NCBI GenBank assembly: GCA_965248355.1
Contig: OZ252098.1
Coordinates: forward strand, 2,880,001-2,944,000
Length of the DNA: 64,000 nucleotides
Origin: Candidatus Latescibacterota bacterium
GTDB lineage: Bacteria > Latescibacterota > UBA2968 > UBA8231
Direction of reading: 5' to 3'
Shown: positions 58,560-61,348 of the stretch, piece by piece
How the letters are laid out: each line of letters opens with the position of its first letter
Position numbering within the stretch: the first letter of the stretch is position 1
Notes under the pieces: model-generated
Database searches by the model: none
The model's input: only the letters and a program-made list of their open reading frames with translations
What the model was told of the DNA's origin: nothing
Made by a program: the position numbers and the translations under genes

Positions 58560-58608
58560 ACACGGGGGCATCTACGAGGGCGCTACATTCACCGGAAGGA
58601 GATCCATC

Positions 58609-58836
58609 ATGAACAGACTCATCAAGCCCCAGAAGCAGTCTTACACCGGCGAGGACGCCCAGGTCCTTGCTTATTCCGATGCCTGCGAGATAGCATGGCT
58701 CATGAACCTCTGCTCTGGCGGCATAGGCGCCGCAGTCTTGTTGGGCCTCGCCGTGCCGCCGGCCCTGGTCGCGTTCGGCGTGTCGTGCTTCATCATGTAC
58801 GTCATCACCTCGGCGGCGTGCAAGGGCTACATCTGA
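58609..58836 (+). CDS. Putative RiPP precursor peptide A1 (75 aa)
   Basis: GAAGGAG RBS; leader MNRLIKPQKQSYTGEDAQVLAY; 4 Cys; ends GYI. Confidence 0.85.
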   Translation: MNRLIKPQKQSYTGEDAQVLAYSDACEIAWLMNLCSGGIGAAVLLGLAVPPALVAFGVSCFIMYVITSAACKGYI

Positions 58837-58950
58837 TCCATTCCTCCCCGGCCCTTCTTTCAGTCGTGGACCGTCCTGATGAGCGGGACGAACAACGAAT
58901 GAACAGGGGGCATCTACGTGGGCGCTACATTCACCGGAAGGAGATCCATC

Positions 58951-59166
58951 ATGAACAGACTCAACAAGCCCCGAAAGCAGTCCTACACGGGCGATGACAC
59001 TCAGGTCGTTGCCTACTCCCGTCTCTGCGAGATGACGTGGACGACCGCCTTCTGCACAAGCTCCCTGCCCTTCCTCGGCGGCGTGCATCCCTTCCTGGTC
59101 GCGGTGGGAGTGAGCTGCTCCATCTTCTCCATGGTCTGTTCGGCGGTGAGCAACGGTTACATCTGA
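58951..59166 (+). CDS. Putative RiPP precursor peptide A2 (71 aa)
   Basis: Same RBS/UTR; leader MNRLNKPRKQSYTGDDTQVVAY; 4 Cys; ends GYI. Confidence 0.85.
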   Translation: MNRLNKPRKQSYTGDDTQVVAYSRLCEMTWTTAFCTSSLPFLGGVHPFLVAVGVSCSIFSMVCSAVSNGYI

Positions 59167-59387
59167 TCCCGTCACGCCGAGACTTGCGGCATAGACGCGA
59201 ACGTCGATAAGACAAACCCCTTAGCGCCCCGTAGATGCCCCCATGATCGAATCGTCTCGTCCCTGCCATGATCCCCATCCATGCCACCGGTTCTTTTGGA
59301 GTCGGGGCCCGTGACGGGGGGACGAACAACGAATTGAACAGGGGGCATCTACGTGGGCGCTACATTCACATCGGAAGGAGATCCATC

Positions 59388-59609
59388 ATGAGCAAACTCA
59401 TCAAGCCGCAGAAGCAGTCCTACACCGGCGAGGACTCCCAGGTCCTTGCCTACTCCCTTGCCTGCGAGATTGCGTGGGCCACCCAGTACTGCGTGGCCTT
59501 GGTAGCGGTTGCTCTCATTTTTGGCGGGCCGGCTGGGGTGGCCGGGGTTGGCATCCTGTGTGTCGTCATCTACGTCGTCTCCACGTCGGCGTGCCACGGT
59601 TACATCTGA
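59388..59609 (+). CDS. Putative RiPP precursor peptide A3 (73 aa)
   Basis: Same RBS/UTR; leader MSKLIKPQKQSYTGEDSQVLAY; 4 Cys; ends GYI. Confidence 0.85.
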   Translation: MSKLIKPQKQSYTGEDSQVLAYSLACEIAWATQYCVALVAVALIFGGPAGVAGVGILCVVIYVVSTSACHGYI

Positions 59610-59683
59610 CCTTCTCCCGAGAATTGCACCGTGCCTAGTACTCACTGACCAACCAAACCCCTTAGCGCCCCGTAGATGCCCCC

Positions 59684-61348
59684 ATGATCACAACATTCCT
59701 GTCGTCCTTGCCCCGGGTTTCGGAAGCGCTCTCCTACGCGGTCCGGGTCGAGGCCCGCACCCTGCGCCACGAGGCCCGGTCGAAGCCGGGAGACTTCTGG
59801 CCTGCCGTCGTACTCCTGGCCGCGGCCGGAGGGTTCTTCTGGCTGGGTCTCTGGTTATCACTCCACATCACCAAGGGCCTTCTCGGCGACGGGAACCCCG
59901 AGCTGGCCCTGGCCCTGGCCTCCGTGTTTCTCGCCTCCTACGCCTTCCTGTGGTTCTGCTTCGCCGTCGGCTTCGGCGGAGAGATCGTACCGATCTCCCG
60001 CCTGGAGAAGCTCGCCCAGCTTCGATGGACCCCGGGGCAGGCCTACGCGGCGGGCCTGGTGATGGCCGCCTTCAAGCCCCTGCCCCTGTTCTTCTCCCTG
60101 AGCTTCCTGACGATCGGGCTCACGCTCTTCCCGCCGGCCGGCGCCGCGTCCGTGCTGGCCTCGGGCCTGGCCACGGGCGTGACCGCTCTCGGCATCGTCG
60201 CCTTGACCCAGGGCGCCCGCTGCGCCATCGAGCTGGCGTCCTGGAAGGGCGCGCTGAGGACACTCGCCCGCGTCCTCGCGGGCGGACTGTTCGTGGCCCT
60301 GAGCCTGTTGCTCGCCTGGTCCCTGGTCGGCGGCGACTGGATCGAGCGGATTCGCGGGATTCCGGGCTCCTGGATCGAGATGGCGCCCACAAGCCTGCTG
60401 GCCCGGGCCTATCACCTGGCGGGGGAGGGACGCCTCGCGGACCTGCCGGGGCCCCTGGCCCTGCTCGGCGCCTTCGCGGCGGCCGGCTTCCTCTTCGGCT
60501 GGCGCCTCACCCGCCGGCGGGTCTTCCTCGCGGGCGGGTCCCGCCTGGCCCCGGCCGGCCCGCGCGACCGGATCCCGGGTCTGGCGCGGTGGCTCGGGCG
60601 GGTCCTGCCGCCGCCCTATCCGAACTTGGTGGTCCGCGAGGTGCTGGCCGCGATTCGCTGGAAGCAGCTCTGGATACAGGCGGCGTTGGCCGCGATGTTC
60701 GCATGCGGCGCTGCCATCACTCCTGCTCTCGCCCTCGCGGCCGGCGACGGACGCGCCAGTTTTCCCTACCCCTGGCAGATGCATGGCCTGGCGGTCGGCT
60801 TTCTCGCCGTCTTCCAGAGCGGGCTCGCGACCAACCTGTTCTCGAGAGACGGCAGGGCCGCCTGCGAGTACCTGCTTCTGCCCCTTGCCGAGCGGGAGAT
60901 CCTGGCGAGCAAGAACATCGCCTTCGCGATCATCCAGTACGCGGTGACGGCCCTCTGCGCCCCTGTCCTCCTCTTCGTGCTCTGGTTCCACGATCTCCTC
61001 GGACCCGGGCTCCAGGCCCTCGGGGCCGTGGTCCTGGCCCCCTTGGCGTTTGTCATCAGCGGCAACTATCTCTCGATCCTCAACCCCGCCAAGTCGCCCG
61101 GATCGAAGAAAGACCCGAGAGGCCATGTCCCGCGGAACAGCGGCCTCCTCCAGCTACTGCTGGGGACTCTCCTCGGCGCCGCGACGGCCCTGTATTTCTC
61201 GATCGATTCCGGGTACCTGCGCTACGCGGCGGCGGCCTTCGGGGTCCTGGCCGCGGCGGGGCTGCCGGCGGGGTACGTCCTCGCCCTGCGCCACCAGACC
61301 CGGCTGCTCCGGCAACGGCGCCTCGCCGTGGCGGAAGTGTTCTCGTAA
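59684..61348 (+). CDS. ABC-2-type multi-pass membrane permease
   Basis: About 12 TM segments; N.F.RDG.A...LLLP....IL..KN motif; adjacent to ATPase. Confidence 0.75.
   Translation: MITTFLSSLPRVSEALSYAVRVEARTLRHEARSKPGDFWPAVVLLAAAGGFFWLGLWLSLHITKGLLGDGNPELALALASVFLASYAFLWFCFAVGFGGEIVPISRLEKLAQLRWTPGQAYAAGLVMAAFKPLPLFFSLSFLTIGLTLFPPAGAASVLASGLATGVTALGIVALTQGARCAIELASWKGALRTLARVLAGGLFVALSLLLAWSLVGGDWIERIRGIPGSWIEMAPTSLLARAYHLAGEGRLADLPGPLALLGAFAAAGFLFGWRLTRRRVFLAGGSRLAPAGPRDRIPGLARWLGRVLPPPYPNLVVREVLAAIRWKQLWIQAALAAMFACGAAITPALALAAGDGRASFPYPWQMHGLAVGFLAVFQSGLATNLFSRDGRAACEYLLLPLAEREILASKNIAFAIIQYAVTALCAPVLLFVLWFHDLLGPGLQALGAVVLAPLAFVISGNYLSILNPAKSPGSKKDPRGHVPRNSGLLQLLLGTLLGAATALYFSIDSGYLRYAAAAFGVLAAAGLPAGYVLALRHQTRLLRQRRLAVAEVFS

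Follow-up and report, generated by a model that had tools for sequence, protein, structure and literature searches.

Gene clusters for RiPPs and bacteriocins have to supply precursor in large excess over enzymes and transporters from a single operon, and the solutions to this imbalance that we know of are separate promoters and leaky local terminators. The window analyzed here, a stretch of 64,000 nucleotides from a Candidatus Latescibacterota bacterium (contig OZ252098.1), holds a locus that raises the question of whether there is another one. Its three precursor genes are each preceded by a short element whose reverse complement recurs downstream, the last time directly before the start codon of a permease gene. 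The most probable answer, to which we give a rough probability of 0.55, is that a cis-acting long-range RNA duplex would separate the fate of the precursor cistrons from that of the flanking genes, probably by RNase III-type processing together with masking of the permease start.

The precursor locus and its repeated elements

Judged by its sequence, the locus is a RiPP-like gene cluster, with a conserved leader, a variable core, and adjacent tailoring and export genes. The cluster genes all lie on one strand, in the order radical SAM protein, two GT4 glycosyltransferases, BtrH_N/DUF4872 protease-like protein, TPR protein, and precursor peptides, followed on the 3' side by an ABC-2-type permease, its partner, a DrrA-like ABC ATPase (61367-62134), and a fused ABC exporter (Table 1). 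An alignment of 14 peptides has 10 invariant and 5 nearly invariant columns, nearly all of them within residues 1-27, and the C-terminal portion varies. The peptides A1-A3 match no family in Pfam or NCBIfam. Few of the 67 protein clusters found for the precursor peptides carry a source name, and those that do are Gemmatimonadaceae. The permease orthologues show only 78-82% identity in four same-genus genomes.

The ATG at 59684 is the earliest possible start of the permease gene, because there is an in-frame TAG at 59663-59665, and the first-pass annotation was right that no purine-rich Shine-Dalgarno (SD) sequence precedes it. GGAG-type SD sites are present at all three peptide genes and at the TPR, GT4, and ABC ATPase genes. 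No intrinsic terminator (GC-rich hairpin followed by a T-run) was found in the three precursor 3' UTRs, the terminator matches on the forward strand between 58000 and 60000 being confined to coding sequence, and no sigma-70-type promoter was found in 57000-62500. The genome encodes an RNase III (PF14622 match of 116.7 bits, above the cut-off, G000:C1:335275-335658).

Table 1. Genes, repeated elements, and duplication relics of the precursor locus (positions in the window).
Feature	Position	Strand	Basis or remark
TPR-repeat protein gene	57123..58559	+	ORF, Pfam TPR matches; stop TGA 58557-58559
S1, 5' arm, bulge base A	58564-58585	+	22 nt; exact match, 0 mismatches
Precursor-like peptide gene A1, 75 aa, no AS downstream	58609..58836	+	ORF, peptide alignment
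Copy of TPR-gene tail before S2, left end of duplication unit	58881..58905	+	Local alignment to 58500-58563; 0/500 shuffles
S2, 5' arm, bulge base T	58906-58927	+	22 nt; exact match, 0 mismatches
Precursor-like peptide gene A2, 71 aa	58951..59166	+	ORF, peptide alignment
AS1, 3' arm, ATGATC next	59222-59242	+	21 nt; exact match, 0 mismatches
Junction spacer: decayed permease head and decayed TPR-gene tail	59243-59340	+	98 nt; shuffles
S3, 5' arm, bulge base T	59341-59362	+	22 nt; exact match, 0 mismatches
Precursor-like peptide gene A3, 73 aa	59388..59609	+	ORF, peptide alignment
AS2, 3' arm, last base directly before permease ATG	59663-59683	+	21 nt; 0 mismatches
Membrane protein / ABC-2-type permease gene, 554 aa	59684..61348	+	ORF; no Pfam family

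The element upstream of the precursors (S) has the consensus GGGGGCATCTACG(A/T)GGGCGCTA, and its counterpart (AS) reads TAGCGCCCCGTAGATGCCCCC, the reverse complement of S without the middle A/T. The five copies listed in the first-pass annotation are all where it placed them, and both AS copies are followed by ATGATC as it had claimed, the second ATGATC being the permease start codon. None of 100 shuffles gave any match to the element at up to 3 mismatches. The two AS copies are part of a direct repeat of 36 nt that is identical in both places and has ATGATC as its last bases. A search of the whole genome (5,503,661 bases, up to 3 mismatches) returned 3 S and 2 AS, all in the locus at 2,938,500. 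The concern that the element might be a repeat dispersed through the genome is thus not borne out, as there are no further copies in 5.5 Mb.

We also scanned two collections with the 19-letter core, which matched 115 loci in metagenome_contigs and 113 in genome_contigs. Among these 228 loci, 80 per scan of which were examined as full DNA, multiple copies, AS, or the peptide occurred in same-genus loci only; the other matches were single, without AS or peptide, and we took them as chance. The 14-peptide alignment served for a protein-guided scan of metagenome_contigs, and none of the 208 pattern matches was confirmed. Rfam produced one match, inside A3, which we rejected as sub-threshold (17.5 bits, where the gathering score is 46.7). 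We note in passing the idea of a mini-ORF: the ATGCCCCCATGA within AS has no preceding SD and is out of frame in two genomes (G000, G002) and in frame in three (G006, G004, G007).

The repeat unit is, on sequence grounds, a tandem duplication. Its left end is marked by the copy of the TPR-gene tail before S2, and the junction spacer combines a TPR-gene tail (GGGACGAACAACGAATTGAACA; score reached by 5/500 shuffles, which is significant) with a permease head (ATGATC..TCGTCCCTGCC; score reached by 40/500 shuffles) that by eye resembles the permease head of G002 better. The decayed permease start that the earlier annotation took as the mark of the duplication unit is therefore present, with a TPR-tail copy next to it.

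Cassette number varies between strains. The A3 cassette is missing from one contig of run X11, where 59212 is linked to 59654 across the 36-nt direct repeat, and one contig each of runs X8 and X9 goes from 59249 back to 58886, which indicates an additional cassette. The genome G006 has two deletions with end points within AS and S. As to the suggestion that the elements are recombination sites for amplifying or inverting cassettes, copy-number variants at the direct repeats exist, and no inversion was seen. No strand-change joint was found in the contigs of runs X5, X8, X9, and X11, an observation to be read with the fact that contigs drop rare variants, and 14/14 precursor genes in 4 genomes share the same orientation. 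An invertible DNA switch would be expected to have a site-specific recombinase nearby; none was seen within about 700 kb (nearest PF00589 match at 2,237,957, sole PF00239 match at 985,874), and the ORFs tested in the window carry no such domain. An integron attC site was rejected: the junction can form a hairpin with an extrahelical base, but no integrase lies close to it and it is a relic of the duplication.

Predicted pairing and conservation of the two arms

S and AS can form a helix of 21 pairs with one bulged base, at about -44 kcal/mol (-44.3) for the bare arms, a length that reaches that of RNase III substrates (about two turns, ~20 bp or more). Duplex energies range from -41 to -56 kcal/mol over every combination of S and AS. 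The first-pass annotation had proposed a duplex closing each precursor cistron. Equilibrium folding does not give this arrangement: S1 pairs with AS2 (p=0.99, partition function), AS1 with S3 (p=0.99), S2 remains unpaired, and A1 has no AS of its own. The same pattern recurs in all four genomes folded (G000, G002, G004, G006), where S1 pairs with the last AS (p 0.98-1.00) and the internal AS with the next S across the junction, with the caveats that the partners of the arms are ambiguous and that folds of translated RNA above 1 kb are unreliable.

Both arms lie in untranslated sequence, and their outer ends sit close to the flanking genes. S1 starts 3-4 nt after the TPR stop in 4/4 genomes (4 nt in the window, from the TGA at 58557-58559), and in 5/5 the gap between the end of the last AS and the permease ATG is 0-1 nt. 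The permease start codon thus adjoins the predicted helix, in which the U and G of this codon would pair with a flanking CA of S1. In G000, G004, and G006, the helix is extended by UGA with UCA (permease codons 2-3) and CA with UG of the AUG.

Conservation within the genus was assessed on 11 cassettes from 4 same-genus genomes, which are related to each other. S and AS have mean pairwise identities of 0.926 and 0.919, and the SD region has 0.933, against 0.78 at third codon positions of the leader, 0.68 in the S-to-SD spacer, and 0.46 in the 3' UTR. By this comparison S and AS are under constraint, conserved like the SD region while the 3' UTRs diverged. Standard pairs fill 97.8% of the pair cells, a share that drops to 39-56% once the partner is shifted by 1-3 columns. 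The unpaired cells number 5/229, four of them in the two loop-proximal pairs and one at the base pair. The extra base is present in 13/13 S copies and absent from 12/12 AS copies, and this partnerless base is the most variable position of the element (T in 9/13 S copies, C in 2/13, A in 2/13). Among the 18 core pairs the sole change is that an A of AS has become G, leaving a U.G pair. One helix pair is changed on both sides, from A-U to G-C, in 3 cassettes. Within-genus covariation is not significant (score reached by 55/500 shuffles), since 17/21 pairs never vary. This near-invariant primary sequence could instead reflect a sequence-specific reader.

The internal arms are dispensable, as A1 has no AS in either G000 or G006 and the S of A3 in G006 is incomplete or missing. 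A further genome, G007, has kept AS and the permease and has no S, precursor, or TPR gene.

Homologous TPR-precursor-permease loci with a single precursor are found in another genus (G045, G046) and in another family (G035). The TPR gene of G045 is 26% identical to that of the window (E 5e-28). In all of these loci the precursor is bracketed by helix arms whose sequence is unrelated to S and AS. In G045 a bulged A interrupts a helix of 12+8 pairs (-37.6 kcal/mol), and in G035 a bulged U interrupts one of 4+10 pairs, which has further extensions. Between the two, two G-C pairs are exchanged for A-U (by eye). We took as statistic the longest Watson-Crick helix allowing one bulge, compared with positional controls. 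It reaches 21 pairs in the window (control maximum 13 over 200 places), 18 in G045 (maximum 11 over 60 places), and 15 in G035 (maximum 10 over 40 places). A Smith-Waterman pairing score failed the positional control in the GC-rich window (observed 67, control mean 46, maximum 87), and its shuffle results for G045 and G035 (0/60 and 0/500) are to be read only beside the positional controls of the helix statistic. A gapless-extension repeat search missed the G045 bracket, and RNAduplex over long intergenic windows was uninformative, as it chains many weak pairs.

The brackets share a geometry. The 5' arm lies upstream of the SD and ends 23-46 nt before the precursor ATG, and the 3' arm begins 42-77 nt past the precursor stop. 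The 3' arm of G045 ends 144-145 nt before the permease start and does not abut on its ATG, which speaks against the preferred reading. The bracket is known from three lineages only, as G045 and G046 are nearly identical and G035 is a single genome. It was not found in 4 other loci where a precursor lies next to a permease homologue (G115, G117, G120, G077), of which G115 offers only 58 nt of upstream sequence and G077 has IS-like genes inserted.

Complementarity is hence kept, with unrelated arms, in homologous loci of two other genera; its loss in homologous loci is what the first-pass annotation had named as grounds for giving up the duplex. As for the covariation that it proposed to look for, pairing is kept across genera, while the score within the genus is the non-significant one given above. 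Pairing kept between arms of unrelated sequence favours a structural role, in RNA. The helix itself is probably functional, because related clusters in two other genera build the same bracket from different sequence.

Proposed function and rival explanations

We propose that the polycistronic mRNA of the cluster would contain a cis-acting, long-range helix whose two arms are S and AS. The ancestor would have been one cassette, made of the TPR stop, 3-4 nt, the 5' arm, a 5' UTR with a strong SD, the precursor, its 3' UTR, the 3' arm, and the permease ATG. Tandem duplication of the entire unit, from TPR tail to permease head, would have multiplied the precursor with both arms. Because both arms are untranslated, ribosomes on the precursor would leave the helix unmelted, and the precursor cistron or cistrons would be looped out by it. 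The length of the helix fits an RNase III substrate, and cleavage may occur in both arms. Cutting would free precursor mRNAs that are stable because their ends stay paired, whichever S and AS are the partners, and it would sever the downstream transporter mRNA and reset its 5' end. When intact, the helix would bury the SD-less permease start codon. The net effect would be a high output of precursor and a low or gated output of transporter from one transcript. Three of these steps are inferred: cutting by RNase III, stabilisation of the mRNA, and the gating of translation.

An alternative that is unlikely but deserves weight, and that is compatible with this duplex, is translational coupling bridged by the helix. 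The helix base would juxtapose the TPR stop and the SD-less permease start, and a ribosome ending the TPR gene would melt the helix base, free the AUG, and reinitiate. TPR protein and permease would then be made in step, and the looped precursors would be translated from their own strong SDs. The tight spacing of S1 and the last AS to the flanking genes, their predicted pairing in the four folded genomes, the UGA-UCA and CA-UG extension, and a permease without SD among neighbours that have one all fit this scheme. So does the outer extension of G035, which pairs the TPR stop region with the SD/start region of the permease (score reached by 11/500 shuffles), and long-distance pairing is known to couple translation in phage MS2. 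However, in G045 and G046 the distance from the TPR stop to the arms is 106 nt and that from the arms to the permease start is 144-145 nt, and the stop and start regions there are non-complementary (score reached by 260/300 shuffles). Moreover, the extension in G002 is only one pair, co-transcriptional folding would join S1 to the first AS and not the last, G007, which has neither S nor a TPR gene, still carries the permease and AS, and we know of no bacterial precedent for reinitiation across a looped-out kilobase. A bolder form of this idea, which we find distinctly doubtful, is a shunt-like bypass in bacteria: on finishing the TPR gene, the ribosome would open the helix base and be handed directly to the permease AUG, skipping one to four precursor cistrons (0.34-1.7 kb), and the same helix, if cut by RNase III, could release panhandle-stabilised precursor mRNAs.

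We regard as similarly improbable that the elements are a by-product at the DNA level, that is, a functionless inverted repeat whose young duplication copies were homogenised by gene conversion or unequal crossing-over and whose sole effect is to provide recombination or slippage substrates that alter cassette number. The tandem duplication with its junction relics, the contig joints in X11 (loss of the A3 cassette) and in X8 and X9 (gain of a cassette), and the G006 deletions ending inside AS and S count in its favour. It leaves unexplained the inverted repeat in the ancestral single cassette, the near-invariance of the arms between species that share 46% identity in their 3' UTRs, the extra base constantly in S and never in AS, and the bracket of different sequence round a single unduplicated precursor in two other genera.

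Still less probable are relic terminal inverted repeats (TIRs), left by a mobile element that carried the cassette into an ATGA stop/start overlap of the TPR and permease genes. By eye, the 21-22-nt inverted ends are flanked by ATGAACA ... ATGATCA, a 6/7 direct repeat resembling a target-site duplication, which would account for the abutment on stop and start and for the absent SD. Correia elements are described as MITE-type, with inverted ends that bind RNase III (PMC2649163). Such elements come in many dispersed copies, against 3 S and 2 AS in 5.5 Mb here; neither the genome nor the collections hold further copies, and no empty site was found. The TPR-precursor-permease order also occurs in G045 and G035, so the position of the precursor is old, and old unselected TIRs should have decayed like the neighbouring UTRs. 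Relic TIRs would at most explain the origin of the arms, not their maintenance.

The least credible reading, operator sites read in both orientations by a DNA-binding regulator upstream of each precursor and of the permease, agrees with a primary sequence nearly invariant in the genus beyond what complementarity asks for and with copies immediately upstream of genes, but AS lacks a mid-site base at which S is free to vary (hard for one protein reading both), there is no convincing internal dyad symmetry (by eye), no Pfam DNA-binding domain among 15 ORFs tested in 43.9-54.7 kb (E<=1e-5) or 9 proteins tested in 54.7-63.9 kb (E<=0.01), and no sigma-70-like promoter overlapping the sites, and in other genera it is pairing, not sequence, that is kept.

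If the duplex reading is true, a conserved long-range helix looping out the precursor cistron would be a third solution to precursor excess, and a second natural cis-encoded operon duplex after the one recently described in S. aureus, in a distant phylum. With a bracket of different sequence in three lineages, arms multiplied with the precursors, and a start codon at the helix base, the locus would make a compact testable model, useful for studying sub-operonic control. In heterologous expression of such clusters, omitting the UTR arms could shift the ratio of precursor to immunity or export protein.

Comparison with known systems

In lantibiotic and bacteriocin operons, hairpins or leaky terminators behind the structural genes set the ratio of precursor to machinery. 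The need is the same here and so is the place in the operon, between precursor and downstream genes. However, those hairpins are local, whereas the proposed structure depends on a partner that lies about 340 nt or more upstream, and no intrinsic terminator was found after A1-A3. In phage MS2, the long-distance (Min Jou) interaction couples translation of the replicase to that of the coat. As would be the case here, the start site is masked by distant upstream pairing that ribosomes crossing it can open. The MS2 partner lies inside a coding region, while the partner here lies just past a stop codon and the loop holds independent, strongly translated cistrons.

Our literature search, which covered open-access papers, found no description of such a bracket round RiPP precursors. 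Three systems processed or bound by RNase III resemble it in part. The Correia repeat enclosed elements of Neisseria are ~100-150 bp long with inverted ends, fold in mRNA, bind RNase III, and alter expression of their neighbours (PMC2649163). The AS1-spacer-S3 junction module (141 nt) has the same shape. Correia elements exist in hundreds of dispersed copies, whereas the module is found at a single locus and stems from a duplication junction, not from transposition. In bacterial rRNA operons, RNase III processing stalks flank the 16S and 23S rRNA (PMC6582327). There, and as proposed here, long-range pairing loops out a unit of a polycistronic precursor, and a two-strand cut releases it (in our locus, would release it). 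The looped unit here is a translated cistron of ~300 nt or an array of ~1.1 kb, and not a structural RNA.

The closest known system is yabJ-spoVG of S. aureus, where a cis duplex between the yabJ 5' UTR and the yabJ-spoVG intercistronic region is an RNase III substrate (bioRxiv 10.64898/2026.09.18.752551). In both cases one arm belongs to the first cistron's 5' UTR and its counterpart to the intercistronic region ahead of the next gene, so that the duplex (here, the predicted one) brackets a cistron inside a single operon transcript. An RNase III substrate that sets downstream output separately is shown there and proposed here. There is no sequence relationship between the two and the host organism is another one. 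In our locus, the 3' arm adjoins an SD-less start codon, and the bracketed cistron is a RiPP-like precursor, present in one to four tandem copies, each with arms.

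Inverted repeats within the peptide gene cluster

The first-pass annotation had placed three 22-nt 5' arms (S1-S3) and two 21-nt 3' arms (AS1, AS2) around three tandem precursor-like peptide genes (A1-A3). All five are present as exact copies (table), and shuffled sequences gave matches at up to 3 mismatches in 0 of 100 cases. AS is the reverse complement of S minus the middle W, and each AS copy forms part of a 36-nt direct repeat, identical in both places, that ends in ATGATC. S1 begins 4 nt beyond the stop codon of the TPR gene. The elements are not part of a dispersed repeat, as a scan of the complete 5.5 Mb genome allowing up to 3 mismatches returned no further S or AS copy.

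The genes follow the order BtrH_N/DUF4872 protein, GT4 glycosyltransferase, TPR protein, three peptides of 71-75 aa, membrane protein, DrrA-like ABC ATPase, and fused ABC permease/ATPase. Genes for a radical SAM enzyme, an A24-like peptidase, and another GT4 lie farther upstream; the product of the cluster may be a peptide, glycosylated and radical SAM-modified, of a class not yet described. In the three peptides, an N-terminus of 27 residues is conserved, and the C-terminus is variable, hydrophobic, and Cys-bearing. They matched no family in Pfam or NCBIfam, and the few source-named members among 67 related protein clusters are hypothetical proteins of Gemmatimonadaceae. The GT4 gene start (TGA ATG AAC A) and the TPR stop ahead of S1 share the word GAATGAACA, and ATGAACAG opens A1 and A2 too, recurrences that are possibly due to chance.

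The membrane protein (554 aa, hereafter permease) can start no earlier than ATG 59684, because of an in-frame TAG at 59663. In line with the earlier description, no Shine-Dalgarno (SD) sequence precedes this start, whereas one is present at the three peptide genes (GGAAGGAG) and at the TPR, GT4, and ABC ATPase genes. The label of exporter is uncertain for this protein: a role in self-protection, as a transporter with the DrrA-like ATPase, is equally possible, and of the two it is the fused ABC protein that is more exporter-like.

Coordinates of sequence features (window positions unless a locus of another genome is named)
Feature	Position	Remark
S copies, GGGGGCATCTACG(A/T)GGGCGCTA	58564-58585, 58906-58927, 59341-59362	exact
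AS copies, TAGCGCCCCGTAGATGCCCCC	59222-59242, 59663-59683	exact
Radical SAM enzyme	46841-48046	same strand as cluster
A24-type (prepilin-peptidase-like) membrane peptidase	48170-49672	same strand as cluster
Second GT4 glycosyltransferase	52638-53909	same strand as cluster
GAATGAACA, GT4 gene start and TPR stop	55903-55914, 58554-58563	
Fused ABC protein	62125-63885	
C-run before the permease ATG	59679-59683	homologous sites: L018 (G006) ~7940-7948; L021 and L019 (G007), reverse strand
ATG within AS	59676	
Rearrangements in G006	L018 7270-7330, 7560-7605	
Orphan-like locus of G007	L019 ~6200-6270 (oriented)	reverse strand
G045 arms with anti-SD-like and SD-like words	L274 7338-7359, 7656-7678	
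G035 arms with anti-SD-like and SD-like words	L288 ~3984-3997, 4366-4381	
Transposase-like ORFs in G077	L292 3157-3926 (oriented)	reverse strand

Constraint and duplication within the genus

Four of the 9 other genomes of the genus matched by DNA and 3 by peptide profile; the profile matched 0 of 66 genomes in other genera of the order. Regular cassettes (S, precursor, AS) number four in G002 and three in G004. G006 reads S1-A1-S2-A2-AS1, then A3 without a full S, half an AS fused to S, A4, and AS2, and G007 has only AS and the permease, next to unrelated upstream DNA. This DNA is lower in GC and lacks a precursor, S, or TPR gene; with AS intact and the ABC genes kept, the locus looks like an orphan transporter, possibly retained for immunity. 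The two rearrangements of G006 have their end points within the arms: one joins AS to the right half of S, thus depriving A3 of a full S, and the other joins the left half of AS to S, which gives rise to a local hairpin of 7-8 bp. Hairpin-associated deletions are suggested in both cases.

Over 11 regular cassettes, mean pairwise identity is 0.926 for S, 0.919 for AS, and 0.933 for the SD region, and falls to 0.78 at third codon positions of the leader, 0.68 in the S-to-SD spacer, and 0.46 in the 3' UTR. Since the arms keep this identity while the UTRs have diverged and permease orthologues share only 78-82%, the arms are under constraint. The element is real, locus-specific, and constrained.

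When the 21 S/AS pairs are placed on the cassette alignment, 97.8% of cells are paired, against 39-56% with slid partners. Seventeen pairs are invariant, two vary on one side (U-A to U.G), and one varies on both (A-U replaced by G-C in 3 cassettes and by G.U in 1, and left unpaired in 2). With so many invariant pairs, the covariation score of these same-genus cassettes was reached by 55 of 500 shuffles. Complementarity within the genus is therefore a matter of invariance, which alone neither proves nor refutes a structure. No base in the element varies more than the partnerless one: among 13 S copies it is T in 9, C in 2, and A in 2. This extra base occurs in every S copy and in none of 12 AS copies. 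Both observations fit a duplex.

The three units align from ~25 nt before S through the stop codon. Copies of the TPR-gene tail lie in the A1-S2 spacer (0/500 shuffles) and in the 98-nt AS1-S3 spacer (5/500). The latter opens with ATGATC and carries a decayed permease head, which matches the permease of the window's own genome (G000) weakly (40/500 shuffles) and that of G002 better, by eye. The duplication unit therefore spanned the TPR tail to the permease head, in keeping with the earlier proposal that the decayed permease start marks this unit. Ancestrally there was a single cassette (TPR stop, S, precursor, AS, permease ATG).

The number of cassettes is still variable. One contig of sequencing run X11 joins 59212 to 59654 over the 36-nt repeat and therefore lacks A3, and one contig each of X8 and X9 leads from 59249 back to 58886 with 19 other letters between. 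Of the earlier suggestion that the repeats are recombination sites for amplifying or inverting cassettes, the variation in number stands, but no inverted cassette was found in any genome examined. We detected no tyrosine or serine recombinase within ~700 kb, and no DNA-binding domain by Pfam in the ORFs tested at 43.9-63.9 kb.

Brackets in other genera

Of 168 genomes in the phylum, 14 have permease homologues by profile search. Three of them have the local gene order of the window: G045 and G046, which represent a different genus in the family, and G035, which is from a different family. G045/G046 encode a TPR protein (26% identical, E 5e-28), one 74-aa peptide (leader profile, E 2.7e-4), a permease (25% identical), and the ABC ATPase; G035 has the same order (peptide E 6.3e-5). 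In all three, the peptide gene lies between inverted repeats unrelated in sequence to S/AS. In G045, UGAGGGAGGCCACUCCUUUA pairs with UGAAGGAG-A-UGGCCUCCCUCA (12+8 pairs, bulged A, -37.6 kcal/mol), and in G035, AAGG-AAGGCCACCU pairs with AGGUGGCCUU-U-CCUU, plus further extensions. The 5' arm has its end 31-46 nt ahead of the ATG (window, 23-25 nt) and the 3' arm begins 42-77 nt past the stop (window, 53-55 nt), a geometry matching that of the window.

Each locus was scored by its longest Watson-Crick helix, with one bulge of a single base permitted, that joins the 150 nt preceding the start to the 200 nt following the stop. This helix has 21 pairs in the window (control maximum 13 over 200 placements), 18 in G045 (11 over 60), and 15 in G035 (10 over 40). 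A gapped pairing score used earlier was set aside, having failed the positional control in the GC-rich window. The arms of G045 and G035 look homologous around a shared GGCC core, with two G-C to A-U exchanges (by eye). Their 5' arms hold an anti-SD-like word (CUCCUUU / CACCUUU) and their 3' arms an SD-like word (GAAGGAG / AAGGUGG); competition between this helix and ribosome binding is a further possibility.

No bracket was found in G115, where the contig ends 58 nt upstream, in G117 and G120, where upstream genes differ and a 27-nt gap precedes the permease, or in G077, where IS-like ORFs separate peptide and permease. The G077 ORFs between the precursor-like gene and the permease homologue are transposase-like. 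Overall, 11 genomes with adjacent genes for a peptide and a permease homologue were examined, and 7 of them have a bracket. These represent 3 of 6 genera and three different arm sequences, of which two resemble each other by descent. Complementarity is thus kept in homologous loci of two other genera with unrelated arms, above control maxima. As to covariation, pairing persists across these genera with other arm sequences, and the score within the genus is one that shuffles also reach. It is the bracket, rather than its sequence, that recurs in distant homologous clusters.

Pairing partners, possible roles, and known systems

The reading with the most support is a long-range RNA helix that acts in cis and keeps the precursor cistron(s) looped out of the operon mRNA. 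Its length and position would suit RNase III-type excision and stabilisation of the precursor mRNA, and it may mask or reset the downstream transporter start. The genome encodes RNase III. The element matched no Rfam family, nor did we find a sigma-70-like promoter between 57000 and 62500 or a terminator in any of the three precursor 3' UTRs. Among the sequencing runs listed as containing the sequence, none was of RNA.

Every S x AS combination gives duplex energies of -41 to -56 kcal/mol. The first-pass annotation had a duplex closing each precursor cistron; partition functions of whole arrays, unreliable as folds of translated RNAs above 1 kb, instead pair S1 with the last AS (p 0.99 in G000, 0.98-1.00 in G002, G004, and G006) and each internal AS with the next S over the junction, S2 of G000 remaining unpaired. 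Co-transcriptional order would favour cassette-wise pairing instead. The choice of partner is immaterial for an RNase III-type cut, since the same positions would be cut in every S and AS.

In G000, G004, and G006, the S1/last-AS helix extends beyond the G5/C5 run: CA pairs with UG in the permease start codon AUG, and the stop codon UGA of the TPR gene with UCA of permease codons 2-3; in G002, one extra pair is left. In G035, the TPR stop region and the permease SD/start region are paired by an outer extension (11/500 shuffles). The G045 arms lie 106 nt from the TPR stop and 144-145 nt from the permease start, and these stop and start regions are not complementary (260/300 shuffles reach the score). 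Burial of the start codon and stop/start juxtaposition are therefore limited to two lineages, outside the shared core, and termination-coupled opening of the permease start is a bolder, lineage-limited possibility. The C-run before the permease ATG varies among cassettes and species (CCCC, CCCCC, CCCCCC, CCCCTC), and contigs of three runs have one extra C after 59678. Its length sets the frame of the AS-internal ATG relative to the permease, which is out of frame in G000/G002 (ATGCCCCCATGA, stop overlapping start) and in frame in G006, G004, and G007.

The open-access literature searched yielded no account of RiPP precursors bracketed in this way. Among described systems, the yabJ-spoVG cis duplex of S. 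aureus comes closest; rRNA processing stalks and Correia elements are analogues of the bracket in structure.
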